Of a stretch of DNA of 64,000 bases, positions 10,621-30,093 are shown piece by piece; position 1 is the first letter of the stretch; the number at the start of each line of letters is the position of its first letter. The DNA comes from an uncultured Staphylococcaceae bacterium (GTDB lineage: Bacteria > Bacillota_I > Bacilli_A > ML615J-28 > CAG-313), in the NCBI GenBank assembly GCA_964409955.1, contig CAYPEY010000004.1, forward strand, positions 1,569-65,568, in the 5' to 3' direction. The position numbers and the translations under genes are program-made. The notes below the pieces were generated by a model. That model was not told the origin of the DNA and did no database searches. It saw only the letters and a list, made by a program, of their open reading frames with translations.

Positions 10621-11058
10621 TTATTTAATTATTTGTTCGATTTTATTATCTTTTAATATTTTTTCGAACTCATCTTTATATCTTGTATTAATCAAAACTT
10701 TTTTGTCCTTTATGAACAAATTAAATTGGTAGAATACAGATTTCCTATATCTGTTACATGTATATTTTTTAACATCACATATATTAAGCTCTATCCTTTT
10801 AAATAAAGTTTTTAAATAAACTCTTTCACTATCAAACTCAACTCTATATTTAATAGCATATAGCCATCCATATAAACCGATTGTTCCAAACATAACCCAT
10901 GCAATTGCGAACAAAATAATATCTTTATCACTATATTTATCGTTATTCATTAAATAAATAGACAAAGGCATTAATATTGCAAAAATATATCCAAAAATCA
11001 TAATATTTCTAAATGGTTTGCCTTCTTTTTTCATTCCGTCAATTATTCTATTATCCAT
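10621..11058 (-). CDS. Hypothetical two-TM membrane protein; candidate immunity protein for the main RHS toxin
   Basis: It starts 14 nt after the RHS stop with a GGGAGGA SD. It has two TM helices (IMIFGYIFAILMPLSIYLM, IILFAIAWVMFGTIGLYGWLYAI) and a basic soluble tail. Confidence 0.5.
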   Translation of the reverse strand: MDNRIIDGMKKEGKPFRNIMIFGYIFAILMPLSIYLMNNDKYSDKDIILFAIAWVMFGTIGLYGWLYAIKYRVEFDSERVYLKTLFKRIELNICDVKKYTCNRYRKSVFYQFNLFIKDKKVLINTRYKDEFEKILKDNKIEQIIK

Positions 11059-11072
11059 AATTTCCTCCCAGT

Positions 11073-11705
11073 TTAGTTAAAAATATCAACCAATAATATT
11101 ACACAGGTAGCAGCACCCGCAAGCGCTCTAGCGCCCGGCATTGGTATTGCTGCAATCCCTGCACATACAAGGTATGCTCCAGCAATAGTACCCCACCCTA
11201 CATTTGCAGTAATTTCTTGAGTAGTATTACCAGAAATTGTGCCAAATGAGAAAGAAATACCATCTTGCAAACTAATTTCTGCTCCATAAGTAATCCATGG
11301 TGTCAATTGCATACTAGTACCAAATCCAATGTTTGATGAAACATAAGCACTAATTCCATACCAATTTCCTAAATTCATTCCAACCCCAGCACTATATCCT
11401 CCATTACCTATATTACTATAAGAATAAAACATTTCTGAATCGTTCAATTGAGTTGTTATGGTATAAGAAATATTACCAAAGAAAGATCCAATAAAAGCAT
11501 TTTCAATCAACGAAGTAGTATAGTGTGTCATTTCAACAGAATTCGCTTTAGGCCAATTAATGCTACCAAAACTTGATCCACCTAATGATCCAAAACCACT
11601 AACTTTTGACCCTACAACTACACTTCCGCTTCCAACAATATTACTAAATGTTCCTCTTGTAGAACCAATCATTCCACCACTAGACAATCCACTAACATTT
11701 GAACT
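11073..11705 (-). other. C-terminal variable (toxin) domain of the RHS protein, about 210 aa, unrecognised family
   Basis: The region after NNPIGIVYSS is Gly/Ser-rich with alternating aromatic and small residues (GISAYVSSNIGFGTSMQLTPWITYGAEISLQDGISFSFGTISG). It ends in a hydrophobic segment, GTIAGAYLVCAGIAAIPMPGARALAGAATCVILLV. Confidence 0.5.
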
Positions 11706-14700
11706 ACTATATACAATTCCAATTGGATTATTTTTCGCATAACTATATAGATTTAGTCCATTAATAGATTGTGGATTTAAACTAGAAACATCTGCAGGTT
11801 GGATAAATCTTCCAAGTTCTGGTGAATAATATCTTGCATTACAATAATAAAAATTAGATTCAGTGTCGTAATAATAACCTTTATATCTATATGGATTAAT
11901 ATTAGCTATGGTTGTTCCTTCTAAATTCATTGCTTCCGAAATAGTTTCCCCATATGCTGTATAAGTATATCTAGCAACAAGTTCTCCTGATGAATCTACT
12001 ATATATTCTATATCACCAAGTAAATTTGTTATGTAATAATATATGTTACTTACACTGTTTTGAGTTAGTTTAAATCCTATTAAATTGTTATTATCATAAA
12101 TATATTCTATTGTTTTGTCAGTATGGATTTCACCTATTAAAAGATTATCCATATATACATATTCTATCACATCATATTGATTAGTTGAAGAATTATACAC
12201 TTCTTTTTTTACTCTTCTATCCATTGCATCATATGTATATTTGTATAAATAATATCCTTCATCATCATCATATAATCCTACGAAGTTACTACCTTCATAC
12301 ACGTAAATATAATCATGATAAGAATAAATTCTATTTGCGGAATCATATGTATAATATGTTGTATCACCATTATGCCTTATACTTGTTATTTTTGTTTTGT
12401 TATTTGAATCATATGTAGCTCCAACTTCTACAGATAAATCACCGTATTCTTCACTCTTATTATATCTTTCAATTGCTGTAAGATTTCCTAAACTATCATA
12501 ATAATACGTTGCCTTAAATACATACATTGAAGCATTTCCTGATGCATCTTTTTCCGTTCCAACAAATTCTGTTTTTAACTGATTATACTCATCATAAGTA
12601 TAATCATATACTCGAAAATGAATAGGTAAAACACCTGTTAAATCTTCTACTTCTCTTGTTTTTTGACTAACATTACCCATCACATCATATTTATATTCAT
12701 ATGTTATTCTATATTGTTCAGTATTTATTACTTCTTTAGATATTCTATTAGACGTAAAATTATTATCATATATACTTTGATTTGAATTATTCATATTATC
12801 ACTTGAAAAATATGTATAATCATACGTTATTATATTTTCATATGACACTGTATCAATAATCTTCTTTTGTGTAATTCTTCCAAGTGAATCAGTTATATTT
12901 TGAGTTCTTATATCTAAATAAGTGTTTTCAAAATAATATAAAACATTATCACTATTATATACATAATCTAAGTCGCTTGTTATTCCATTTATATTATATG
13001 TTATACCAGATAACATATTATCATCATCATAATCATATTGTATTTCATTACCAATACTATCTTTAGAAAGAAGTAAATTTCCATTTAAATCATATGTATA
13101 AGTATAATTAATTCCATTAATTCTATCATATACAACTGATAAATTTCCCATTTCATCATATAAATAATCATTATGTATAAAGTATTCATTAGTAGCTATA
13201 TCTTGTTCATAATAATAATCTAATTTTAAATCATCATCATATCCATAATGAATAACATACTGATTTCCATATGTTGCATTTGCAAGTAATCCCGTATATA
13301 TACTTTCATAACTATAGCCATTATAATAATTGTAATTATGATAATCATATTCAACAATAACATTATAAGTTCCAGTAGATGAGCTTCTTTCTGATATCTT
13401 TAGTATATCTCCATATACATTATATTCAAATTTATACTGAATAAAATCTGAACTAGACCCCATCTTTATTGTATCTACATAACCTTCATCATTATATGTA
13501 TAATTAATTTGTCTACTCGCAAGCGATATTTCATTTAATCTTAATAAACTATCATATGTATAGCTAATTACTTTATTATTAGCATTAGTTATAGAATTTA
13601 ATACACCGTTTGCTTCATTGTAATCATATAATGTAGTCACATCATATTCATCTATAAAAGCTTCTGTATACATATAATTTTCACTATATTGATACGAATT
13701 TAAATAATAACCAAGCGTATCATTACCAGTCAATATTTCAGTTACTACATCAATTCCAGTTATACCAAAATTTGTTACCTCTACATTTGAACTTGTATTA
13801 CTAAAAGAATTAATTTTATTTCCATTTATATCTTCCGTTAATGAAATATCATAAGTACTTGCGTCAACTTCTGTAATTTTATTATTTTCATCTCTTGTAA
13901 TAATAGTATTTTCATTAGATTTAGCAACCCCTATAACTTTACCATAATCATTATACTGATATTCAGTCATAGTTGGATTTTTATATAAAACTAAATTATC
14001 AATATAAATGCTATTTTTTCCAGAATTAGAAATAGATATTGTAGCTTGGTCCCAATAACTTTCTACCTCAAATGATTCTAATATATACTGATATCCTAAT
14101 ATATCATTTCGATATTTTATTGTATATATCGAACTACTTGTCAAATCAGTTGTATTATGAAGTTGTAATTTCATTTCAACATCTGAATTATTTGTTGAAA
14201 TATATCCACCAAACGAAATAAATTCTCCGTGATTTACAGATAAATTTATCGTTTTAGACATTGATGTTGCTGAACTTAATCTACCCTCTATATTTCCAAA
14301 TACATTTGAATAATTCCTTAAACATGCTATAACATTAGTCCAACCATTTGCAACTGAACCTCCTTCACTTCCTTCAAATGAATGATCATCGATATAATTA
14401 ATATTTGATGTATTAAAATCATTATGGGTCTCACTAAATCTTAAATTTTCAAAATATGATGTTGTATTATAAGTTGTTGAAAGCTCAATTACAATATCAT
14501 ATAACTCTTCTGAATAACCATTTACTGTAAAATTACAACTATATAGTTTATATTCATCATCTACTGAATTATAAGAAACATTACAATCAACATCAACATC
14601 AGCTAAATTCTTTGGATACACATTAATGTAACCACCATTAATAATCGTTTCATCATTACCAGTTGATTTAACATATCCATAAATTGTATACGATTTATAA

Positions 14701-17378
14701 CCATTTAACTTAATTACTTGCGAAACTTTCGGAGAATTAGTAGAGTTTCCATTTTTTATTTTTAATGCATAAAGCCCAAATAAATTTTCTGTTGTATCAA
14801 CATTAATAATGTTACCATTGCTATCATTTAAAATATTCCAATCACTAATTCCATCAATGGAATTATAAATTTCAAATCCGTTATTAATAATTTTATTATA
14901 CTTATTATTTATAGTATCCGTCTTATATAGCAATTTATTATTTAAATATGAATTACTACTATCATTTTCATATTTATAAAAATTAGCGTTACCTTTATCA
15001 TCATATACATTAATTACTTGTCCTGATGAATTAAATAAATAAGTTATCTCATTATTTAAATTATCCGTAAATATTGTTTTCTGAACATTATAACTAATTG
15101 TTACATTTGTAAGGTTTGTTGTTATGTCACTTCCATGAACTATTCTATTATAATAATTTATTACTTGTCGATAGTTTTCATCATAAACAAAATATAATTC
15201 ACTGTTATATGTAATATCACTACTTAAATCTTCAATAACTCCCGTCATATAATTGAATGTTTGATCTAAATCACTATCATAATACGTATGATAATCATAC
15301 CATGCAACTATATAACTTGTTGATGTTGTTGTATAATAAGTTAAATAATTTAAATTCAAATTACTATCATAATTATAAGCTATTTTTTTAGTAAAAGTTG
15401 TAGAATTACTAGATAAGTTTCTTGTAATAAGAATTTCTGTTAATAAATCATTTGTATATGTGAAATCAGCTTTATTTCCCATTGCGTCTATAATATAATC
15501 AATTACTTTTAGGCCACTTGATGTTGTTGCATGTGAAATGCTTACATATTCAGTATTATTCTCATCTAACATTTCGATTTTTGTTAAGTATCCTAAATTA
15601 TTATAATAATAAACTATTTCGCTATTTACAACTCTTTTATAATATTCATTACTGCTTGAAGAATTTATAGTAATTACAGAATCTGCTCCATCTTCACTAA
15701 TATAATGATCAACATCATCTATAACCTTTAATTTATGATACATTACATTTCCTGTAGAATCTATCAAGCAATAATAATTAGAGGTTGTAAGTCCCGTAAT
15801 AGATGTCGGCGATTCAATTTTTTCACTATAGTTACTTCGCCACCCATTTCCATAACCGATATTTTCATTTGAACTAACACTATTATAATAAAATGCTAAA
15901 TTAAATGAAGATCTTGCTGTATCATTAGTATAATCACTTCTTGCAACTACAAAATTTCCAGCAAAACTATTTAAATAAAAACATCCAGCACCACCCATAT
16001 CAACTTCTTGATAATTCCAATAATCTTTTATTCCTTTAACATCATAATAAGTCATACTAATAGAAGTTGCCCCAATAGATACATACTCTTCATTTAAACT
16101 AAAATCATATGGTGAAAATTCTAAATACATAAAATCATTAGATGCACTTTTTGCTACTTTTGTTATATTTGTATAAAACTTATTAGTTGTTCCAGAAACT
16201 TTTAAAGGTTTATCTATAAATTTTTTTGTATAGACAGTATTACCATTAATCGTATCATAATTTATATTTGATGTAATCTGATTTATACTTACTAAATACA
16301 TATTTGAAACATTTATTGTAGCAGTATTATACATAACAGCATTTGTAATTATTACATCTTTTGGAAGTTCTGATTTATCAATCTTCATAATTACGTATTT
16401 TGAGATATCAGTACCGTTATCATCATATTTTTGTAATTTAAAAGTTGTAGCTGTAGTTGTTAACGTTTTTGTTATTTGCTTATACTCTATTTTAGTTGGA
16501 CTTGTATTTAAAGTATATGTTACAGTTGGATCTATAACAACAGGATATGTTGCTAGTTCTAACCAACTTGATGATGGAGTAATTGTTATTAAATATTCAT
16601 TGTTCTTAATTAATTCTACATTCATTTCTATATCATAACTAATATTTCCATCTGAATCATACATAAAATATTTATCAATTCTATATATTAATTCATTATT
16701 ATCATTATAGAAATCAATACTTGATGTAGTTTCTACTAATGTTAAGTTAGTAATTGATAATGTATAACTAAAAGAAAAATCTTTAATATATTTATTTATA
16801 ATGATATTTTCTTTTAAAGATCTACTATCTGTTATGAGTTCTAAATCAACATTATCAAATATATCAGTATACATTACTTTTCCAACAAGATGGTTTAGAT
16901 TACTTCTATCTGTTTTGTCTTCAATAATCTTCGCTTCTACCTTATTAATACTGTTATATATTATTTCAATTTTAGTATTTTCATATTGTAATTTAATCTT
17001 TTTATTGGAATGAATTTTTTTTGGTATCTTTAATTTATAATCTATTGAAGCACTGTCTAATTCATTACCATTTTCTTCAAATGTTGAGTTAATCTCAACT
17101 AAATTATTAGATTCATCTAAATAATGAACAGGTCTATTATAGATATAACTTTCATATAAGTTATCACTTTTTTTATATACTTTACCATATTCAGATCTAT
17201 CAGTAGTTATCTCACCTATTACATCATCGTTTGGATCATAATAATCTTTATTTAATACTATTTCTTCTGTATTTTTAGAATAGATACCATCCTCAGCAAA
17301 TAATTTAACAAACGGAAAGTTTGCAAATATATTGACAAAGATACTTAATGTTATAAGAATACCTATTGTTCTTTTCAT
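11073..17378 (-). CDS. Secreted RHS/YD-repeat polymorphic toxin (WapA-like), 2101 aa
   Basis: The N-terminal signal peptide is MKRTIGILITLSIFVNIFANFPFVKLFA. Two regions look like carbohydrate-binding modules (NNGFEIYNS...W; HSFEGSEGG...NGW). Dozens of YD repeats follow (YxYDxxGNL type, e.g. YTYDLNGNLL, YTYDAMDRRV). The RHS core end is YDTESNFYYCNARYYSPELGRFIQPADV...NLYSYAKNNPIG. Confidence 0.9.
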   Translation of the reverse strand: MKRTIGILITLSIFVNIFANFPFVKLFAEDGIYSKNTEEIVLNKDYYDPNDDVIGEITTDRSEYGKVYKKSDNLYESYIYNRPVHYLDESNNLVEINSTFEENGNELDSASIDYKLKIPKKIHSNKKIKLQYENTKIEIIYNSINKVEAKIIEDKTDRSNLNHLVGKVMYTDIFDNVDLELITDSRSLKENIIINKYIKDFSFSYTLSITNLTLVETTSSIDFYNDNNELIYRIDKYFMYDSDGNISYDIEMNVELIKNNEYLITITPSSSWLELATYPVVIDPTVTYTLNTSPTKIEYKQITKTLTTTATTFKLQKYDDNGTDISKYVIMKIDKSELPKDVIITNAVMYNTATINVSNMYLVSINQITSNINYDTINGNTVYTKKFIDKPLKVSGTTNKFYTNITKVAKSASNDFMYLEFSPYDFSLNEEYVSIGATSISMTYYDVKGIKDYWNYQEVDMGGAGCFYLNSFAGNFVVARSDYTNDTARSSFNLAFYYNSVSSNENIGYGNGWRSNYSEKIESPTSITGLTTSNYYCLIDSTGNVMYHKLKVIDDVDHYISEDGADSVITINSSSSNEYYKRVVNSEIVYYYNNLGYLTKIEMLDENNTEYVSISHATTSSGLKVIDYIIDAMGNKADFTYTNDLLTEILITRNLSSNSTTFTKKIAYNYDSNLNLNYLTYYTTTSTSYIVAWYDYHTYYDSDLDQTFNYMTGVIEDLSSDITYNSELYFVYDENYRQVINYYNRIVHGSDITTNLTNVTISYNVQKTIFTDNLNNEITYLFNSSGQVINVYDDKGNANFYKYENDSSNSYLNNKLLYKTDTINNKYNKIINNGFEIYNSIDGISDWNILNDSNGNIINVDTTENLFGLYALKIKNGNSTNSPKVSQVIKLNGYKSYTIYGYVKSTGNDETIINGGYINVYPKNLADVDVDCNVSYNSVDDEYKLYSCNFTVNGYSEELYDIVIELSTTYNTTSYFENLRFSETHNDFNTSNINYIDDHSFEGSEGGSVANGWTNVIACLRNYSNVFGNIEGRLSSATSMSKTINLSVNHGEFISFGGYISTNNSDVEMKLQLHNTTDLTSSSIYTIKYRNDILGYQYILESFEVESYWDQATISISNSGKNSIYIDNLVLYKNPTMTEYQYNDYGKVIGVAKSNENTIITRDENNKITEVDASTYDISLTEDINGNKINSFSNTSSNVEVTNFGITGIDVVTEILTGNDTLGYYLNSYQYSENYMYTEAFIDEYDVTTLYDYNEANGVLNSITNANNKVISYTYDSLLRLNEISLASRQINYTYNDEGYVDTIKMGSSSDFIQYKFEYNVYGDILKISERSSSTGTYNVIVEYDYHNYNYYNGYSYESIYTGLLANATYGNQYVIHYGYDDDLKLDYYYEQDIATNEYFIHNDYLYDEMGNLSVVYDRINGINYTYTYDLNGNLLLSKDSIGNEIQYDYDDDNMLSGITYNINGITSDLDYVYNSDNVLYYFENTYLDIRTQNITDSLGRITQKKIIDTVSYENIITYDYTYFSSDNMNNSNQSIYDNNFTSNRISKEVINTEQYRITYEYKYDVMGNVSQKTREVEDLTGVLPIHFRVYDYTYDEYNQLKTEFVGTEKDASGNASMYVFKATYYYDSLGNLTAIERYNKSEEYGDLSVEVGATYDSNNKTKITSIRHNGDTTYYTYDSANRIYSYHDYIYVYEGSNFVGLYDDDEGYYLYKYTYDAMDRRVKKEVYNSSTNQYDVIEYVYMDNLLIGEIHTDKTIEYIYDNNNLIGFKLTQNSVSNIYYYITNLLGDIEYIVDSSGELVARYTYTAYGETISEAMNLEGTTIANINPYRYKGYYYDTESNFYYCNARYYSPELGRFIQPADVSSLNPQSINGLNLYSYAKNNPIGIVYSSSNVSGLSSGGMIGSTRGTFSNIVGSGSVVVGSKVSGFGSLGGSSFGSINWPKANSVEMTHYTTSLIENAFIGSFFGNISYTITTQLNDSEMFYSYSNIGNGGYSAGVGMNLGNWYGISAYVSSNIGFGTSMQLTPWITYGAEISLQDGISFSFGTISGNTTQEITANVGWGTIAGAYLVCAGIAAIPMPGARALAGAATCVILLVDIFN

Positions 17379-21296: not shown

Positions 21297-21716
21297 TTAT
21301 TTTTTTATACTATCTAAATATGATTGTAAAATTAGAGTAGCAGATAAAGTATCAACTTTAGTCTTTCTTTTCGCTCTACTCCAATCAGCTGATATCATAA
21401 TTTTAGTAACTTCAACTGTTGAAAGTCTTTCATCAAATAAGATTACCTCAAGTCCTGTTTCAGATTCAAGAATTTTTTTAAATTCCATTACATATTCACC
21501 TTGAGGGCCTATTGTTCCATTCATATTTTTAGGAAGACCCATAACAATTTTTTCTACTTTTCTTTCAGCTATGTACATTTTAACATATTCTAAACATTTT
21601 TGCAAATCTTTATCTCTAAAATGCACAGTTGTTATAGATGTTGCAATAATACCCATTGGATCACTTATTGCAATTCCGCAAGTTCTGTTTCCAAGATCAA
21701 GTCCAATATATCTCAT
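21297..21716 (-). CDS. ruvX: Putative pre-16S rRNA nuclease / Holliday junction resolvase-like protein (YqgF)
   Basis: MRYIGLDLGNRTCGIAISD...GLPKNMNGT...DERLST are YqgF family motifs. The start overlaps the alaS stop by 1 nt. Confidence 0.9.
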   Translation of the reverse strand: MRYIGLDLGNRTCGIAISDPMGIIATSITTVHFRDKDLQKCLEYVKMYIAERKVEKIVMGLPKNMNGTIGPQGEYVMEFKKILESETGLEVILFDERLSTVEVTKIMISADWSRAKRKTKVDTLSATLILQSYLDSIKK

Positions 21717-24415
21717 TATAGTTTTTCCCTTACTACAAGTAAAGCTTTATCTACATCTGATACATTCTTACCACCAGCTTGAGCAAAGTCTGGACGACCT
21801 CCACCATTACCTCCAGTAGCAATAGCAGCTTCTTTAACAAGTTGACCACAATTAACTTTATTACCTTTTGATTTAGCTATAAAGATAATCTTATTTTGAT
21901 CTGCAAATACATCCGCAAAGAAAACAACACAATTGTTATAATCATTTGAAATCTTATCAATGATATCTTTTAAACCATTAACATCAACATTTTCAACTTT
22001 TGCGATAATTACATCAGTTCCGTTAATGTTTTCTGCATTTTCTTCAAAACGTTTGTAATCAGCGGAATCTTTACTTCTTTTTTGACTGTCATATTCTTTT
22101 TCAATATCTTTTTGGATCTTTTTAGCATTTTCAAATGCTTCACGATAATTTAAAATATCTTTATAACTACCAACAAGAGTAGGAATTACAATTTGTGGCT
22201 TTACTAAACTATAACCTTCTTCTGTCCCTTTATTATATAAAGCATTTACTTTAGATATAACTGAAAGAATTTCATTTTTCATATTTTCAATTACTTTTTC
22301 AACTACTTCAAGCGTATTAGAAGTTGCTACAGCCTCAATTCTAAAAATTCCAGAACCTTTAGATTCAATACTTGTAATTGCAAAGTTAGGAATATCACCA
22401 GTACTTGCAACATGAGTTCCACCACATAATTCCTTACTGAAATCCATATCTACAAGTCTAACAACATCTCCATATTTTTCACCGAATAATGCTTGAGCTC
22501 CTCTTGCTTTAGCATCTTCAATTGATGTTTCAATTACTTGAACCGGGTAATTATCGTTAATTACTTTTCTTACTAAATCTTCTACTTTTAAAATTTCTTC
22601 AGTAGTTAAATTTTGATAATGGTTAAAGTCAAATCTTAAATTTTCACTAGAAACATATGATCCATGTTGAGCTACGTGACTGCCTAATACTTTTCTTAAC
22701 GCTTCATTTAATAGGTGAGTTGCAGAGTGATTTTGAGAAGTCATTTTTCTTAAATTTTCATCTACATTAACTTTAATTACACTATTTTCTTCTAAACAAA
22801 TATTTCCTAAATCAATAGTATGGATATGTTGACCATTTGGCATCTTTACAGTATCTAGAACACTGCATCGAGCACCATCAACAACTACAACTCCTTGGTC
22901 ACCAACTTGACCACCCATTTCCGCATAGAATGGTGTTTTATCTAGTACTACTTGAACAAGACCATCAGCAGATGATACTTTCTTACCGTTTTTAAAGATA
23001 GCTATTACTTTTGAATCTTCTTCTAAATTAGTATAACCAGTAAACTCACAAAATTCTTTATAATTTAAGTATTCTTCATTTTGAGTATTCATTGATTGTT
23101 CATCATTACGAGCAGCACGTGCTCTTGCTTTTTGCTTATTTAATTCTTCTTTGAATCCAGCAAGGTCAACAGTAAATCCTGCATCTTCAGCAGCTTCTTC
23201 TGTTAATTCAATAGGGAATCCAAATGTATCATATAATAAGAAAGCATTTTCCCCTGAAATAACTTTATCACTAGAATTTTTAATAATTTCAGCAAGTTTC
23301 TTTTCTCCAGATGCAAGTGTTCTTAAGAAATTTTCTTCTTCGATTTTAATAACTTTTTCTACAACCGCTTGTTGTTCAACTAAATAACCATAGAATTCTT
23401 TCATGTTATCAACTACTAGTGATACCATTTTATATAAGAATGCTTCGTTAATACCAAGTTTTCTACCATATCTTACAGCTCTTCTTAAAATTCTTCTAAG
23501 AACGTAACCTCTACCTTCATTAGAAAGCATTGCGCCATCTGCTACCGCAAACGTTACACTTCTAATGTGGTCAACGATAACTCTAAACGCCATTTTATAT
23601 TCTGAATCACTATATGATTTTTTTGTGTAGTTTTGTAAGAATTCAACATATGGCCAGAAAAGGTCAGTTTCATAGTTAGTTTCTGTTTCTTGGAAAATGC
23701 AAGCAAGACGTTCAAGACCACTTCCAGTATCAATATTTTTACTTGGAAGTTCTGGATAGTCTTCTCTAGCAAGACCTGTTACAGAATTAAATTGACTAAA
23801 TACAATATTCCAAATTTCAATATAACGGTCATTTTCAATATCTTCTTTTAACATCTTAATCCCGATGTTTTCAGGGTCATACTTAGTTCCTCTATCATAG
23901 AAAATTTCAGTATCAGGTCCACATGGCCCTTCACCAATTTCCCAGAAGTTATCTTCTATTGCAACTAAATGACTAGGTTCAACTCCAAGAGATACCCATT
24001 TTTCATAAGTTTTTTTGTCTTCAGGGTAATATGTAATATAAATTAAATCTTTATCAAATCCATACCACTCTTCACTAAATAATAATTCATAAGCCCAAGT
24101 TAAAACTTCTTCTCTAAAATAATCACCAATTGAGAAATTTCCAAGCATTTCAAAGAAAGTATGATGTCTTGCAGTTTTACCAACATTATCAATATCATTT
24201 GTTCTAATTGATTTTTGTGCATTACACATTCTAGGATTATTTGGAACAACACGTCCATCAAAATATTTCTTTAGTGGTGCAACACCAGCATTAATCCAAA
24301 GTAAAGTTGGATCATTATGTGGAACAAGTGATGCACTAGGAATTATCTCATGTCCTTTTGAAGAAAAGAAATCTAACCATAATTGTCTTATCTCATTTCC
24401 TGTTAATTTTTTCAT
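21716..24415 (-). CDS. alaS: Alanine--tRNA ligase
   Basis: At 899 aa, it contains FFSSKGHEIIPSASLVP, HHTFFEMLGNFSFGDYF-like and the editing-domain motif HSATHLL. The C-terminal region is DHHA1-like. Confidence 0.97.
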   Translation of the reverse strand: MKKLTGNEIRQLWLDFFSSKGHEIIPSASLVPHNDPTLLWINAGVAPLKKYFDGRVVPNNPRMCNAQKSIRTNDIDNVGKTARHHTFFEMLGNFSIGDYFREEVLTWAYELLFSEEWYGFDKDLIYITYYPEDKKTYEKWVSLGVEPSHLVAIEDNFWEIGEGPCGPDTEIFYDRGTKYDPENIGIKMLKEDIENDRYIEIWNIVFSQFNSVTGLAREDYPELPSKNIDTGSGLERLACIFQETETNYETDLFWPYVEFLQNYTKKSYSDSEYKMAFRVIVDHIRSVTFAVADGAMLSNEGRGYVLRRILRRAVRYGRKLGINEAFLYKMVSLVVDNMKEFYGYLVEQQAVVEKVIKIEEENFLRTLASGEKKLAEIIKNSSDKVISGENAFLLYDTFGFPIELTEEAAEDAGFTVDLAGFKEELNKQKARARAARNDEQSMNTQNEEYLNYKEFCEFTGYTNLEEDSKVIAIFKNGKKVSSADGLVQVVLDKTPFYAEMGGQVGDQGVVVVDGARCSVLDTVKMPNGQHIHTIDLGNICLEENSVIKVNVDENLRKMTSQNHSATHLLNEALRKVLGSHVAQHGSYVSSENLRFDFNHYQNLTTEEILKVEDLVRKVINDNYPVQVIETSIEDAKARGAQALFGEKYGDVVRLVDMDFSKELCGGTHVASTGDIPNFAITSIESKGSGIFRIEAVATSNTLEVVEKVIENMKNEILSVISKVNALYNKGTEEGYSLVKPQIVIPTLVGSYKDILNYREAFENAKKIQKDIEKEYDSQKRSKDSADYKRFEENAENINGTDVIIAKVENVDVNGLKDIIDKISNDYNNCVVFFADVFADQNKIIFIAKSKGNKVNCGQLVKEAAIATGGNGGGRPDFAQAGGKNVSDVDKALLVVREKL

Positions 24416-24453
24416 TATTTTCTCCTAATTTTAAATTTTTATTTATTATTCCA

Positions 24454-24680
24454 TAAAAAAATCGTTCCTTATATAATAAGGAACGATTAATATTATCTAT
24501 CGCGGTACCATCCTAATTTATAAAACTTATAGTCTTATACCCTCAAATTGTTTTAACGCAGGACTTGCGGGAAGGATTAGTTCCTCTAGTAAAGGAGCTT
24601 CTAATTACACTTATTATGATTTCACACCAGCCAATCACTCTCTTAAAATATTGTAATTATACTTATCTTTACGTTAACGA
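24454..24680 (-). promoter_or_regulatory. T-box leader (tRNA-Ala responsive) controlling alaS
   Basis: The following elements read on the minus strand. Stem I is GTAAAG...CTTTAC and TAATTACA...TGTAATTA, with an AGAGA bulge and a GGCUGGUGUGA distal loop. The specifier loop has an AAGUA 5' side and a GAA-GCU-C 3' side (GCU is plus-strand 24596-24598). The T-box motif AAATTAGGATGGTACCGCG corresponds to plus-strand 24501-24519. The terminator AATCGTTCCTTAT/ATAAGGAACGATT plus T7 lies at 24454-24488. Confidence 0.85.
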
Positions 24681-24690
24681 TTTATTTATA

Positions 24691-27285
24691 TTAAGCAGCT
24701 TTATTATTTTTATTATTTAAAGCTTCTTGTGCAGCCTTTGCTTCTTCTTCAGCTTTTTTAGCTCTTGCTTCAGCTCTCTTTAAAGCTTTTGCAGCTTTTT
24801 CTGCATCTGCTTGTTCTTTAGCAGCTTGTTCTTGAGCGGCTTGAGCTTCAGCAGCTTCAGATTCTGCCTTTGCTTTAGCTTTTTCTAAAGCTTTTTGAGC
24901 TTTTTCTGCTTTTGCTTCTGCAGCCTCAGCTTCAGCTTTTGCTTTTTCTTCTGCTTCTTTTTTAGCTTTTAAAGTAGCAGCCCTTTTTGCTTTTGCAGCT
25001 TCTTTCTTAGCAGCTTCTTCTTCTGGAGTTAATTCCTTTTTAGCAGCTTCTTTCTTAGCAGCTTCAACTTCTTTAGCAGCTTTAGCTACTTTCTTTTCGG
25101 CTTCTTTTTCTGCTTTTTCAACTTCTTTTTCTGCTTTAGCTACTTTCTTTTCGGCTTCTTTTTCTGCTTTTTCAACTTCTTTTTCAGCCTTAGCTACTTT
25201 CTTTTCAGCTTCTTTTAAAGCTTTTGCTGTTTGTTTTTCTAATTCTTCAGCTTCTTTTTCTGCTTCTTTTCTTGCAGCCTCAGCAGCTTCTGCTTCTTGA
25301 CGAGCTTTTTCAGCAGCTTCTGCATCAAGTTCTGCTTGTTTTCTTGCAGCTTCTGCAGCTTCTGCTTCTTGAGCGGCTTTTTCTTCTGCTTCTTTTCTTG
25401 CAGCTTCTGCAGCAGCTAATTCTTGAGCAGCTTTTTCTTCTGCTTCTTTTCTTGCAGCTTCAACAGCAGCTAATTCTTGAGCAGCTTTTTCTTCTGCTTC
25501 TTTTCTTGCAGCTTCTGCAGCTTCTTTAATAGCTTTAGCAGTTTCTTTTTCAGCTTTAGCTTGAGCAGCAGCTTCTTGTTTAGCACGCTTTTCAGCTTCT
25601 TTTTCTGCTTTTTCAGCATCTTTTTGAGCCTTTGCAATGATCTTTTCAGCTTCTTTTAACTTTTCACGGTTTTGACGTTCAAGTTCTTTAGCTTCTGCTT
25701 TTGCTTTTTCTTCTGCTTCCTTAGCTTCTTGAACTGCTTTTTCCCATGCAAGTTCAGCATCTAATGATTCAGATACTAATTTCTTTAAGAATTCAGGATC
25801 AAGTTCACCTGTATTAACAATCTTTAACCAGTTACCAGCTTTTGGAGTTTTAGCAACTTCGATTTGTCCAGGGTATCCTTGTAAGTAATCAAGTAATGCA
25901 GCTTCTTCAACGAAGAAAGTTACACGATAATCACTTGAAGTTTTTTGCATTAATAAGTAAGGTTTAGCACCAACCATAAATTTATGTTGATTTCCTGCTG
26001 GATTTACAACAACACTTAAATCTTCATGATTTAATTTTTGAGCAAATTCAATCATTTCTTCATAACTTGGTACGAATACTTTTTCTTTCTTAGGAGCAGC
26101 TTCAACAGGTTTTTCTTCTGCTTTGACTTCAACAACTTCTTCAGTTGGAACTTCAGCTTCTTGAGAAGCCTCTGATACTTCTTCAGCAACTTCAGGTTCA
26201 TTTTTAGTTTGAAGTTTAGCAACTTTTTCTTTTAATTCTGCCTCTGCAGCATTTAACGCTTCGTTTTCAACATTTAAAGCTTCTTTTTCTTTATTTAATG
26301 ATTCATTAACAAGTTCTAATTCTTTCTTTAATGTTTCAAGTTCAGCATTTGCAACATCAAGTTTAACTTTATTTTGTAATTCAGCATAAGCAACAGCCAT
26401 TTGATTATATTGAGCAACAGCTGTTTTTTGATTTGCTTTTGATGATTTTAATTCTTGTTTTAATGTAGCAAGTTGATCAGATTCAACAACTACTTGACTA
26501 GGAGCAATACTTACTTCAACGTTTTCATCAATTTCATCTTCATAAACTAAACGTTCATTAGTATATTGATTCATTGAATATAAGATATAAAGTTCAGCAT
26601 TGTAATAAGCTTTTTCTCTAGTTTGAGCCCATTTATCTACCATTTCTTGTTTGCTTCTATTTTCGAACACTTCTTGAGTTAAATATAAAGTAGTAACTCT
26701 ATAAGCAATAACACCAAGAATTCCAACACCTAAAATAATGCAGAAAGCAACGTTCACAGCAGAACTATTTGTTAAAGCAACATCTTGGAATTTATCAAGA
26801 ACTAATGATTTCATTGCAAAAATATCTAATGCAAAGATTACATAAATTGCAATATCTAGTACACTAACTTCATTTTTGCTTAAAGCTAAGTTAACTTTAT
26901 CCATTGCACAAAGTAGTACCATTACAAGTCCTACTGCAACTAGAGCACAAAGGATAACTGTATAAACAAATCTATTAAATGTTAAGACAGACATAGGAGC
27001 TGTACGATTTAATAAGAATACAACATAAACAGATAATGAAACTAAATATGCAACTACTGGAGCATATCCAATAACTGATAAGAAACGATTGTTAGGACGA
27101 TATTCATTAAATTTATGTGCTGTAATAATAATATTTAAAATTGCAATAACTGCTGGTAAAGCAATTAATTTAACAATAACTTCGGCATTACCAAATGTTT
27201 TCCCAAAAGGAATATACATAAGAAGTGATAAACCAATACCTACTAAACCTAAAATAAATGATAAACGATGGTTATTCTTTTTCAT
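24691..27285 (-). CDS. Polytopic membrane protein with coiled coil, MmcQ/YjbR-like domain and an Ala/Glu/Lys repeat tail (function unknown)
   Basis: There are about six N-terminal TM helices, then heptad-like coiled coil. The domain is ...HKFMVGAKPYLLMQKTSSDYRVTFFVEEAALLDYLQGYPGQIEVAKTPKAGNWLKIVNTGELDPEFLKKLVSES. A tail of about 350 aa follows, with KEAEEKAAQELAA and AEKEVEKAEKEAEKKVAK repeats. The start is set at the ATG at 27283-27285; the track start is a GTG. Confidence 0.6.
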   Translation of the reverse strand: MKKNNHRLSFILGLVGIGLSLLMYIPFGKTFGNAEVIVKLIALPAVIAILNIIITAHKFNEYRPNNRFLSVIGYAPVVAYLVSLSVYVVFLLNRTAPMSVLTFNRFVYTVILCALVAVGLVMVLLCAMDKVNLALSKNEVSVLDIAIYVIFALDIFAMKSLVLDKFQDVALTNSSAVNVAFCIILGVGILGVIAYRVTTLYLTQEVFENRSKQEMVDKWAQTREKAYYNAELYILYSMNQYTNERLVYEDEIDENVEVSIAPSQVVVESDQLATLKQELKSSKANQKTAVAQYNQMAVAYAELQNKVKLDVANAELETLKKELELVNESLNKEKEALNVENEALNAAEAELKEKVAKLQTKNEPEVAEEVSEASQEAEVPTEEVVEVKAEEKPVEAAPKKEKVFVPSYEEMIEFAQKLNHEDLSVVVNPAGNQHKFMVGAKPYLLMQKTSSDYRVTFFVEEAALLDYLQGYPGQIEVAKTPKAGNWLKIVNTGELDPEFLKKLVSESLDAELAWEKAVQEAKEAEEKAKAEAKELERQNREKLKEAEKIIAKAQKDAEKAEKEAEKRAKQEAAAQAKAEKETAKAIKEAAEAARKEAEEKAAQELAAVEAARKEAEEKAAQELAAAEAARKEAEEKAAQEAEAAEAARKQAELDAEAAEKARQEAEAAEAARKEAEKEAEELEKQTAKALKEAEKKVAKAEKEVEKAEKEAEKKVAKAEKEVEKAEKEAEKKVAKAAKEVEAAKKEAAKKELTPEEEAAKKEAAKAKRAATLKAKKEAEEKAKAEAEAAEAKAEKAQKALEKAKAKAESEAAEAQAAQEQAAKEQADAEKAAKALKRAEARAKKAEEEAKAAQEALNNKNNKAA
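25081..25215. repeat. In-frame 54-bp tandem repeat (about 2.5 copies)
   Basis: Copies start at 25081, 25135 and 25189 and encode AEKEVEKAEKEAEKKVAK units. Confidence 0.85.
25258..25530. repeat. In-frame 54-bp tandem repeat block (three near-identical core copies plus diverged flanks)
   Basis: Core copies start at 25381, 25435 and 25489 and encode EAARKEAEEKAAQELAAx units. Diverged copies lie near 25258 and 25330. Confidence 0.85.
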
Positions 27286-27309
27286 AGTTTTGTTCACCCT
27301 TTCCTAGTA

Positions 27310-28944
27310 TTAATTTGCTTGTTTTTCAGCGGCTTTTTGAGTAGCTCTTGCAGCAGCTCTTTCTTTAGCTTTCGCTTTTCTTTCTTCCGCTTTTTTTAAA
27401 GCTTCATCAGCTATTTGTTTTTCTGCAGTTTGAACAGCTTGTTTGATAACTTGACGCATAAACTTAGCTTCTTCTTTACCTTTATTAACTAATCTTACCC
27501 ATAAGTTATCTTTTAAGTTTTTAGGAGCTGTTAATTCACCTGGACGAGATTTTAAGTAATTAACAAATTTTTCAGGTGAAGTAATGAAACTTATACGATA
27601 ATCGCTATTTGTTGCTTGCATAACAAGATACATTTTCTTACCAATATAGAATTTATGTAAGTTACCTTTTGCATTAGAAACAACTTTAAATCCTTCATGA
27701 TCACTGAAAGAGTTAGCATATTCAACCATCTTAGCAAATGATGGAACGATTTTATCAACTTTTCTAACAACTTCAACAGGAGCAGATTCTTCTTCAACTG
27801 GTTGAGGAACTACTTCAACAACTTCTTTTTGTTTAGCAAGTTCAGCTTCATATGCATCTTGTGCAGCTTTTAATTCAGCTTTTCTTGAAGCTAATGCAGC
27901 TTTTTCACTATCTAATGCAGCAATTTCTGCTTTTGCTTTTGCGATAGCTTCAGCTGTTGCAGCTTTTTCAGCTTCAACTTTCTTAACTTCTTCTGAATCA
28001 GCAACTTCAGCAACTACAAGTGGAGCAACTTCAACTTCTTCCTCTTCTTCGATTTCGATAGTTTCAACTTGAACTGCAGGTTTTTCTTCAGTTTCAGCAA
28101 GTTCTTCAACTTCTTCTTCAACTTCAGCAACTTCTTCAACAGCTTTTGCTTCAATTGCTTCTTGATTTTCATCAAAGTATGCTTCGTAATCATCTAAAGT
28201 ATCATTGTAAGCACGATTATATTCTGTTTGTTTAATACGTTTATTAGCATCATCACTTTCAGAATAGAATACTAATACTTCATCTTTTCTTACAACTTTA
28301 GAAATGAATTTAATTGTTAAGCCAAAAGCAACAATTAATAAGATGTAAATAAAGAATAATAATGGATTACCTTGGAAATATTCTTCTAAGTGTTGATATC
28401 CGTTATTGTATGCTGCATTGATAAAATATTGTAATGATACAAAACCTACTAACATTAGTAAGCTAAATACATCAAAAATGACGTTACCTGCTGTATCTAA
28501 TTTAATTACTACATTGTGTAATCTAAATAAGCAGTATAATCCAAATACAAAGAATACAACGAATAAAGCAATTACAACACCGATAAGTTTATCTGATAAT
28601 ACACTTAACATAGCAACAGCTGTAAAATCAAATGATAATGTGTAAACCATATTTACGATTGTACCTAAAATGAATAAAAGTGTTGGCATATAAGTCATTA
28701 CTAATACTGTTTTTGAGTATTCACGATTATTTTTTACTAATTGATATTTTTTTACGCTTGGGTAAATTGAAAGTAATAATACAAAAGCAGCAACTGCTAA
28801 TTTGATAATTACTTCTAATTCTAAAACATTTTCAATTTTGTTTAATCCAGGGAAAGATCTAAAAGGGATTGCAGCAACTAATCCAGCTAAAAGACTAAAT
28901 AACCCTAAGACTGTCATTAAGAATTTTTGTTTCTTTGATAACAT
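27310..28944 (-). CDS. Paralogue of the downstream gene: polytopic membrane protein with acidic linker, coiled coil and MmcQ/YjbR-like domain
   Basis: The architecture is the same as the neighbouring gene. The domain is ...HKFYIGKKMYLVMQATNSDYRISFITSPEKFVNYLKSRPGELTAPKNLKDNLWVRLVNKGKEEAKFMRQVIKQA. The start is set at the ATG at 28942-28944, 8 nt after a GGAG. Confidence 0.6.
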   Translation of the reverse strand: MLSKKQKFLMTVLGLFSLLAGLVAAIPFRSFPGLNKIENVLELEVIIKLAVAAFVLLLSIYPSVKKYQLVKNNREYSKTVLVMTYMPTLLFILGTIVNMVYTLSFDFTAVAMLSVLSDKLIGVVIALFVVFFVFGLYCLFRLHNVVIKLDTAGNVIFDVFSLLMLVGFVSLQYFINAAYNNGYQHLEEYFQGNPLLFFIYILLIVAFGLTIKFISKVVRKDEVLVFYSESDDANKRIKQTEYNRAYNDTLDDYEAYFDENQEAIEAKAVEEVAEVEEEVEELAETEEKPAVQVETIEIEEEEEVEVAPLVVAEVADSEEVKKVEAEKAATAEAIAKAKAEIAALDSEKAALASRKAELKAAQDAYEAELAKQKEVVEVVPQPVEEESAPVEVVRKVDKIVPSFAKMVEYANSFSDHEGFKVVSNAKGNLHKFYIGKKMYLVMQATNSDYRISFITSPEKFVNYLKSRPGELTAPKNLKDNLWVRLVNKGKEEAKFMRQVIKQAVQTAEKQIADEALKKAEERKAKAKERAAARATQKAAEKQAN

Positions 28945-29008
28945 AAGTTCCACTCCTTTGTCTATTCAAAACGTTGTATATACATTTACACAACAATTTC
29001 CTATGATT

Positions 29009-29037
29009 ATTATACCACAACTCTTATTTTTTGTAAA
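29009..29037 (-). promoter_or_regulatory. Sigma-A type promoter of the paralogue pair
   Basis: On the minus strand the sequence reads TTTACA, a 17-nt spacer ending in TGg, then TATAAT. Confidence 0.65.
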
Positions 29038-29043
29038 ATGAAA

Positions 29044-30093
29044 CTACCTACTTTTTTTATATTTTTTATAAGTAATCCCTAAATTCGCCAAAATTTGTAA
29101 AATTTTAATCATCGGTACAGCAATAATCATTCCAATTATTCCCAATATTTCACCAAATATGGCTACCGATAACAAGACAATAATAGGATTAGTCTCTAAA
29201 TTTTTGCTTTGTATTTTAGGAACTAAAAAATAACTTTCTAAAAGTTGTAATGTAACTATACAAATCAAAACAAATAAAACCTTAGTAGGGATTGACGCCA
29301 GTGTAAATGCTATTACTATTCCACCTCCAATATATGGTCCAATGTAAGGAATTATATCTGTTATTCCTATAATTAATCCAAGTATTAAAGAAAAATCAAG
29401 TCCTAAATACCAAAAGCATACTGTACTAATGGCTGTTAGAATTAACATAACAATTAATACGCCTTTAAAATATTGTCTTACAATGATTTTGATTTTTGAT
29501 AGAGCTTCTTTTATTAAATTGCTTTCATCATTTTTAATTTTTTCTCTTATATAATTTTCAATATTTTTATAATAAAACATAAAATAAACTACTAAAACAG
29601 GAGTAATTAAAACTTGCAACATGTAGGAAAAATTTTCTTGTATTTTTACGCTAAACTTGGTCAAAAAAGTATTAATTTTTTCTTGTAAAAATACTTCAAT
29701 TTTAGAATAATCAATAATATAACTTCCATTTAATTTTCCATTAATGTTATCGATAATTTCCTTAATTTTATCAATATAAGATGGTAACGCTACGAATAAA
29801 AGCTTTATTTCTTTTATCATTAAAGGTATCAAATATTTGAATAGTACAAAAAATATTATCATAAAAAATATTACTATTATATAAATAGCAATTTTTCTTT
29901 TTATATGCTTTTTTTCTAAAAACTCTATGACAGGTTCTAGTAAAAAAGCAACTAAAAACGCTATAACAAATGGTAATAATATTTTATAGATTACTTTTAA
30001 AATGATTGATATTTTCGGAAACAATACAAACCCTATTAATATTATTACTAAAACTCCTATAACTTCTAAAATTTTAAATAATTTTTTAGGCAT
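29044..30093 (-). CDS. AI-2E family transporter (PerM/UPF0118)
   Basis: This multi-TM protein has the conserved C-terminal block ITDIIPYIGPYIGG...LLESYFLVPKI. The start is set at the ATG at 30091-30093. Confidence 0.85.
   Translation of the reverse strand: MPKKLFKILEVIGVLVIILIGFVLFPKISIILKVIYKILLPFVIAFLVAFLLEPVIEFLEKKHIKRKIAIYIIVIFFMIIFFVLFKYLIPLMIKEIKLLFVALPSYIDKIKEIIDNINGKLNGSYIIDYSKIEVFLQEKINTFLTKFSVKIQENFSYMLQVLITPVLVVYFMFYYKNIENYIREKIKNDESNLIKEALSKIKIIVRQYFKGVLIVMLILTAISTVCFWYLGLDFSLILGLIIGITDIIPYIGPYIGGGIVIAFTLASIPTKVLFVLICIVTLQLLESYFLVPKIQSKNLETNPIIVLLSVAIFGEILGIIGMIIAVPMIKILQILANLGITYKKYKKSR

Follow-up and report, generated by a model that had tools for sequence, protein, structure and literature searches.

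What is the role of a pair of adjacent genes whose products are predicted to join a membrane anchor to a small globular domain through a long charged stalk? The pair, here called A and B, lies in a stretch of 64,000 nucleotides (nt) from an uncultured Staphylococcaceae bacterium (contig CAYPEY010000004.1); the whole stretch is referred to as the window, and all positions are window coordinates. Gene A (27310–28944, minus strand) encodes 544 residues from an ATG at 28944, and gene B (24691–27285, minus strand), its full-length paralogue, encodes 864 residues from an ATG at 27285. The initial annotation, made from the sequence alone, had regarded them as adjacent paralogues of these lengths with a shared layout, and the open reading frame (ORF) calls and the ATG starts, which follow sequences resembling ribosome-binding sites (RBS), agree with this. 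The layout common to both comprises six predicted transmembrane helices, an acidic and helical linker, a block of about 112 residues and a charged tail. This architecture is real, conserved and unannotated: it presents a divergent copy of a known fold in a previously undescribed combination. As to its role, the reading that we favour, tentatively and with rather less than even confidence, is that A and B are a membrane-anchored nucleic-acid-binding pair which serves as a nucleoid–membrane tether or organiser in Acholeplasma-like Bacilli.

Predicted fold of the shared block

The shared block occupies residues 397–508 of A (27421–27756, minus strand; net charge +8) and residues 402–512 of B (25750–26082, minus strand), where it is slightly acidic (net charge −5, or −4 for the hidden Markov model envelope). 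It had been likened by eye to the MmcQ/YjbR family, and model, profile and alignment evidence now points the same way. A template-free AlphaFold model of A residues 393–512 (17-sequence alignment) has a mean predicted local distance difference test (pLDDT) score of 90.8 and the order of elements H-E-E-E-E-H-E-H. The top three matches to this model in a Foldseek search of the PDB are all PF04237 structures (2fki, 2a1v and 3h9x, with template-modelling scores, TM-scores, of 0.64–0.67); for Escherichia coli YjbR (2fki) the values are E = 7.8e-5, a TM-score of 0.67 and a root-mean-square deviation of 3.1 Å. On the predicted structure, the block has the frataxin-like 'double-wing' α/β fold.

The A/B domain shares with YjbR/MmcQ (PF04237, formerly DUF419; YjbR, 2FKI; P. 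syringae PSPTO_3016, 3H9X; D. radiodurans DR2400, 2A1V) its predicted fold, its size of about 110 residues and two motifs, F-x-hydrophobic-x-G-K-K-x-F and a late N-W followed by G. Proteins of that family either are small, soluble and single-domain or carry the domain fused to EVE, TerB, GNAT or nuclease domains, whereas the A/B domain is carried by a stalk of about 170 residues on a six-helix membrane domain, has a charged tail and occurs in a conserved A/B pair. The next-best structural likeness after the YjbR structures is to the C-terminal double-wing domain of T4 MotA (MotCF; 1KAF, 5JLT), which was matched in DNA-bound form (E = 5.5e-3 to 2.4e-2, TM-score of about 0.46). The likeness to MotA is a structural one, with a lower TM-score; MotA is a soluble phage transcription activator without a membrane anchor, and its N-terminal domain binds sigma-70.

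The relationship to YjbR is also seen in profiles. A search of 1.84 billion representative proteins with the domain profile found 93 proteins, the weakest of which include three stand-alone proteins of about 110 residues (P0153, P0155 and P0158; E = 5e-5 to 9e-4). These three score 63.8, 40.2 and 34.2 bits on PF04237, above the Pfam gathering threshold of 30.1 bits, and the domain alignment matches them in hhalign at 98.1% (E = 8e-14, 97 columns). When the two types are aligned separately the values are 96.7% for the A-type domain (E = 4e-10) and 80.7% for the B-type domain (E = 1e-5), against 0.1–0.2% for reversed controls, so that the homology called for by the initial reading is found at the level of profiles. 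Sub-threshold PF04237 matches were obtained for 12 of the 17 family domains scanned in isolation (best E = 9.1e-5), and the results of a PDB sequence-profile search include the PF04237 structure 2a1v (E = 0.39). Two results count against the assignment: PF04237 was not matched by full-length A or B at E ≤ 1, nor by the isolated A domain of the window at E ≤ 10. Full-protein Pfam and NCBIfam scans gave noise only (HlyIII, E = 0.73; MR_MLE_N, E = 0.079; AuxB, E = 0.069; a PgrA coiled coil). On this model and profile evidence, the block is a divergent superfamily relative of YjbR/MmcQ and not a member at the Pfam threshold.

The fold class also admits a different role, in which A and B would bind a metal, haem or another small ligand at the membrane in the manner of frataxin, YdhG or NEAT proteins. 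The YjbR fold falls in the frataxin-like α/β class (PMC9424270), and Foldseek returned weak matches to YdhG-like 'frataxin' structures (9t2w, E = 0.075, and 2oc6). These YdhG/DUF1801 proteins (B. subtilis YdhG, 2OC6; Listeria, 9T2W) belong to the same broad α-β-α sandwich class, and one family member has a sub-threshold DUF1801 match. The YjbR structures match far better, nothing points to metal-binding residues in the A/B domain and YjbR reportedly does not retain the functional residues of CyaY (PMC7641849). The best PDB sequence-profile matches are to the IsdB NEAT domain (E = 0.05, 37 residues), which is short and above any significance threshold; the predicted fold is α/β and YjbR-like rather than the NEAT β-sandwich, and a NEAT identity was rejected. 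The resemblance is local to 27553–27663 on the minus strand (A residues ~428–464, fyigkkmfLvlqsTnndYRisF versus GMLNGKKYMVMETTNDDYWKDF) and was judged to be a chance match. Ligand binding is, in our view, highly improbable.

A six-helix membrane domain with both termini predicted inside

About six transmembrane helices and a cytoplasmic C-terminus had been predicted at the outset, in keeping with the hydropathy, model and charge data given here. A Kyte–Doolittle scan finds six hydrophobic segments in the first ~215 residues of A and of B. The resulting membrane domains span residues 1–220 of A (28285–28944, minus strand) and residues 1–200 of B (26686–27285, minus strand), the latter being delimited also by profile alignment with A. 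An AlphaFold model of A residues 1–265, built from a 57-sequence alignment, contains six long helices and a juxtamembrane helix (mean pLDDT 87.9). The juxtamembrane helix is conserved and is acidic and aromatic in character (EYNRAYNDTLDDYEAYFDEN; A residues 221–262 in the alignment, 28159–28284, minus strand; helix at 231–259 in the model).

The numbers of Lys and Arg residues, averaged over the 57 members, are 2.3 at the N-terminus, 4.0 in loop 2, 2.7 in loop 4 and 3.0 in the flank past the sixth helix, versus 1.0, 1.0 and 1.5 in loops 1, 3 and 5, respectively; summed, this makes 12.0 for the loops predicted to face inwards and 3.5 for those predicted to face outwards. Under the positive-inside rule, these counts place both termini in the cytoplasm, and the YjbR-like domain is accordingly predicted to be cytoplasmic.

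The six-helix domain appears to represent an unclassified membrane family or fold. Foldseek found no similar structure in the PDB (best E = 0.64, TM-score of 0.24), no Pfam family was matched by more than two of 20 members, NCBIfam gave no match and a PDB sequence-profile search returned only weak hydrophobic matches (E ≥ 0.005). A search of a collection of 5.8 billion proteins with the membrane-domain profile returned three family members, the word index used there being poor on hydrophobic words. Within the 57-member alignment P27 is invariant, and F28, E44, K48, P87 and D158 are kept in 81–95% of the sequences. E44 and K48 lie in the second transmembrane helix and D158 in the fifth, and the conservation of charged residues inside the bilayer suggests that the membrane domain may do more than anchor the protein.

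Paralogy and divergence in charge

BLASTP aligns residues 392–507 of A with residues 397–512 of B at 38% identity (E = 7e-25). A profile of the membrane domain of A likewise matches that of B (hhalign 98.1%, E = 9e-14; reversed control 0.2%), and because homology extends to the membrane domains in addition to the shared block the two proteins are paralogous over their whole length. Mean identity over the domain is 70% within the A type and 59% within the B type, versus 34% between A and B. The split in charge is found in all 12 of the 12 orthologue pairs: the A-type domain envelope carries +9 to +14 and the A-type tail +3 to +7, while the B-type domain carries −4 to +1 and is followed by a tail of roughly neutral charge. 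Judged from these alignments, the duplication is ancient, and the divergence between its two copies has followed a consistent direction.

Stalks, linkers and tails

In A, the juxtamembrane helix is followed by an acidic linker rich in Glu and Val (residues 263–318, 27991–28158, minus strand; net charge −21, 39% Glu) and by a helical segment rich in Ala, Glu and Lys, which by composition and alignment is a putative coiled coil (residues 319–376, 27817–27990, minus strand). The protein ends in a basic tail of 36 residues rich in Ala and Lys (residues 509–544, 27313–27420, minus strand; net charge +5). In B, a heptad-like helical segment containing Leu (residues 272–361, 26203–26472, minus strand) is a probable coiled coil on the basis of a crude heptad score and a weak SEC10/PgrA match; it precedes an acidic linker (residues 362–401, 26083–26202, minus strand; net charge −10). 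Coiled-coil segments had been expected in both proteins. The home-made heptad score, which is crude, is positive for B residues 269–345 and for the tails but negative for A residues 319–376, an Ala-rich amphipathic helical stretch, and the expectation gains support for B and not for this part of A.

The Ala/Glu/Lys helical tail of B had been put at about 350 residues and is 352 residues long (residues 513–864, 24694–25749, minus strand); Ala, Glu and Lys make up 80% of it and the net charge is −5, which is near zero for this length. Its composition is 34% Ala, 25% Glu and 21% Lys with only 3% Leu, and owing to this low Leu content it appears to resemble a single charged helix more closely than a classical coiled coil. 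Two arrays of 54 bp (18-residue) tandem repeats with 92–94% identity lie within it, at 25063–25216 and 25330–25521.

So much charged helix raises the question of whether A and B are instead a structural pair, acting as a cytoskeleton-like scaffold or a division or shape factor of a wall-less cell, with the YjbR-like domain as a protein–protein module and the helices as rods or spacers. Long charged helix makes up much of both proteins, and the B tail would reach about 50 nm as a single helix. Among complete B orthologues, this tail varies from 69 to 352 residues through tandem repeats. The B-type domain is not basic, coiled-coil models (LmuB, JetC and PgrA) match weakly in the linkers and the family occurs mainly in Mollicutes-like lineages, all of which would suit a scaffold. 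A purely structural role sits less easily with the strongly basic charge kept by the A-type domain and tail, and with the fact that the closest functional analogue of the fold binds DNA; the Pfam and NCBIfam scans also gave no likeness to a known cytoskeletal family. We consider a scaffold rather unlikely, and continue to favour a role in nucleic-acid binding.

Distribution and conservation of the gene pair

The 5.8-billion-protein collection contains 66 full-length homologues of A, all unnamed and nearly all of 530–620 residues. When 90 matches to the domain profile were scanned, about two-thirds had six hydrophobic segments before the C-terminal domain. Titled genomes with the family include Acholeplasmatales bacterium UBA11505, the nearest of them (81% identity over the domain), uncultured Mollicutes, an Anaeroplasma bactoclasticum metagenome-assembled genome (MAG), 'Staphylococcus sp. 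CAG:324', uncultured Bacilli MAGs and a MAG labelled Prevotella sp. The A-type proteins have 532–546 residues in close relatives, and complete B-type proteins have 572–865 residues, a range driven by the tail.

The gene order around the pair is polC, BaxI, gap (GAPDH), an AI-2E transporter gene, A, B, alaS, ruvX and a DUF1292 gene, with a T-box before alaS. Every related contig of sufficient extent has this order, including one whose homologue is only 29% identical to A. The pair and its surroundings are kept in 12 other contigs, with representatives among Acholeplasmatales, Anaeroplasma and uncultured Mollicutes MAGs. That the two genes and the housekeeping genes around them are conserved together points to a core cellular role rather than a mobile or defence function. 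A defence or phage origin had come into consideration on account of YjbR–EVE fusions and DUF2357 relatives, and was rejected: neither A nor B matches the PADLOC or PHROG models of defence and phage proteins.

A remote clade has a single copy of the gene, coding for 441–442 residues with six transmembrane segments and a YjbR-like domain at the extreme C-terminus, without a tail (L013, 2381–3709; L015, 5707–7032; L016, 4608–5933). A divergently oriented TetR gene lies upstream in this clade and Fic, LplA and glycine-cleavage genes lie downstream, in the order TetR–X–Fic–LplA–glycine cleavage.

The TetR neighbour has a bearing on another explanation, namely that the proteins are membrane-bound, signal-responsive transcription regulators following the logic of ToxR and CadC, in which the six-helix domain would sense a membrane or ionic signal via E44, K48 and D158 and steer a promoter-specific double-wing domain. 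The conserved charges within the transmembrane helices and the proximity of the remote clade to a divergently oriented TetR-family gene would fit such a role, as would a domain of DNA-binding type, which in MotA recognises a particular element of promoters. In a one-component regulator, though, a stalk of about 170 residues and long low-complexity tails would be unusual, and such a regulator does not require two paralogues of opposite domain charge. No repeated operator-like motif was seen, although none was looked for, and the genes conserved alongside serve housekeeping functions and have signals of their own. Regulation of this kind seems doubtful to us, and a more general association with nucleic acid remains the reading that we prefer.

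Several variants of the family were noted. Two proteins, P0069 (709 residues) and P0070 (580 residues), have the same six-helix anchor with two tandem YjbR-like domains and may be the counterpart of the A/B pair in a single gene. In P0148 (1124 residues) and P0150 (703 residues), an N-terminal DUF2357 domain is joined to repeated YjbR-like modules between Lys/Glu-rich helices; these two are soluble, with no transmembrane segments and no PADLOC match, and the DUF2357 proteins with the repeated module are the nearest non-membrane relatives of this domain subtype. A Joint Genome Institute (JGI) protein, P0059 (546 residues), joins an A-type membrane domain of about 220 residues to the C-terminal part of GyrB/topoisomerase (PF00986, PF01751 and PF00204), a chimera that is probably an assembly or gene-calling artefact. 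The typical Mollicutes-like synteny is present on L012 (JAMPDF010000001.1, 'Prevotella sp.') and on L006 (FR890812.1, 'Staphylococcus sp. CAG:324'), and these two taxonomic labels look wrong or outdated.

Gene starts, promoter and the alaS leader

The window has a G+C content of about 29% and nearly all of its genes are on the minus strand. The ORFs of A and B run from 27310 to 28953 and from 24691 to 27297, respectively, on that strand. An RBS-like AAAGGAG lies 8 bases 5′ of the ATG of A at 28944, and an RBS-like GGAAAGGG precedes the ATG of B at 27285; a GTG at 27297 may be an alternative start for B, giving 868 residues. The stop of A and the start of B are 24 nt apart.

A promoter-like site of the sigma-70 type for the A–B operon (TTTACA-17-TGnTATAAT) is found at 29009–29037 on the minus strand. 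It has 11 of 12 consensus matches and a TG extension, reading from 29037 to 29009, and is the top site within 24300–29300. The site had been described as a strong promoter belonging to the pair: its position and consensus stand, while 'strong' goes no further than what such a match would imply.

The pair was also said to lie directly upstream of the alaS T-box, which is the case. The T-box leader of alaS (24476–24678, minus strand) matches Rfam RF00230 over the full length of the model (positions 1–219) with 107.9 bits, above the gathering score of 93, and begins 13 nt past the stop codon of B (24691–24693). A terminator scan places the hairpin of the T-box at 24460–24488, and alaS follows downstream at 21716–24415. 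By eye, the leader contains the T-box sequence GGATGGTACCGCG and GAA-GCU, which may be an Ala specifier. A weak promoter-like sequence (TTAACG-16-TACAAT, from 24677 to 24650 on the minus strand) overlaps the start of the Rfam match. The same terminator scan predicted no terminator-like site between the stop of B and the T-box, so that A–B transcripts may read into the alaS leader.

This arrangement is relevant to a variant in which the pair would tether RNA or ribosomes, rather than DNA, to the membrane, for example to localise mRNA or translation. The basic charge of A would serve equally well for such a role, and with alaS and its T-box adjacent and no predicted terminator between them and the pair co-transcription is possible. 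The proximity to alaS may reflect no more than synteny, since the remote clade does not have alaS next to it, and no RNA-binding precedent for the YjbR fold was found in the literature consulted. We hold an RNA tether to be very unlikely, and take DNA as the likelier ligand in the model that follows.

In the lowest-GC part of the window (0.23–0.25), a 2101-residue ORF lies at 11073–17378 on the minus strand, just past the ParA-like and HIGH_NTase1 genes, which in related loci are conserved after alaS and ruvX. Its only Pfam match, to DUF6531, falls short of the gathering score (21.4 versus 24.1 bits). After it comes a 145-residue ORF (10621–11058, minus strand) with a sub-threshold match to DUF5976.

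Proposed function

The tether that we favour can be set out as follows. A and B constitute a two-gene operon encoding ancient full-length paralogues. Their six-helix domains are strongly predicted to anchor them in the membrane, with the long acidic and helical stalks projecting into the cytoplasm, and the end of each stalk would present the divergent YjbR/MmcQ double-wing domain followed by a charged helical tail. A, with its basic domain and Ala/Lys tail, would bind nucleic acid, likeliest chromosomal DNA, without strict sequence specificity. B, with a near-neutral domain and a polyampholyte tail that can be expanded by repeats, would act as a spacer or modulator, and might conceivably pair with A through homologous transmembrane or helical segments. 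Together, the two would hold nucleic acid at the membrane. Binding by A is proposed because of the likeness of YjbR to MotA and the conserved basic charge of the A domain and tail. DNA binding by the YjbR family has been predicted from its structural and electrostatic likeness to the C-terminal domain of T4 MotA, and YjbR domains are found fused to nucleases and EVE domains (PMC7641849).

Several observations speak against this proposal. No experimental demonstration of DNA binding by any YjbR-family protein was found in the literature consulted. The stand-alone YjbR proteins reached by the profile look acidic by eye, and for this reason the YjbR fold alone does not imply nucleic-acid binding; nor is the B-type domain basic. 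The conserved charges buried in the membrane domain suggest a feature that a simple tether would leave unexplained, and the neighbouring genes provide no specific functional link. A more elaborate version would accommodate those charges in a heteromeric polytopic tether specific to Acholeplasma-like Bacilli, in which A binds the chromosome, B provides spacing as a rod of up to ~50 nm and the six-helix domain couples an ionic or membrane signal; this version we think unlikely.

DNA-binding modules tethered to the cytoplasmic side of the membrane are familiar from ToxR/CadC, Noc, FtsK/SpoIIIE and RacA–DivIVA, to which A and B would be functional analogues. ToxR and CadC combine a single transmembrane helix with a winged helix-turn-helix, Noc combines an amphipathic helix with a ParB fold and FtsK is an ATPase motor; to our knowledge, none of these systems is built on the YjbR fold or on a comparable six-helix anchor. 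No homology between A/B and membrane-linked DNA-binding proteins was detected in the Pfam, NCBIfam, PDB profile or Foldseek searches. The initial annotation knew of no characterised membrane-tethered YjbR-like protein, and none was found in the literature searched here.

Although the YjbR/MmcQ fold is widespread, a function has yet to be demonstrated for any of its members. The A/B locus, a conserved and syntenic pair of core genes, places a divergent version of this fold at the membrane, and the sharp difference in charge between the paralogues makes a defined test possible. If the tether is real, proteins would link the nucleoid directly to the membrane in Acholeplasma-like gut bacteria with reduced genomes, a group whose cell biology has hardly been explored. 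If it is wrong, A and B would still represent a conserved protein family that has neither a Pfam nor an NCBIfam model and deserves one.

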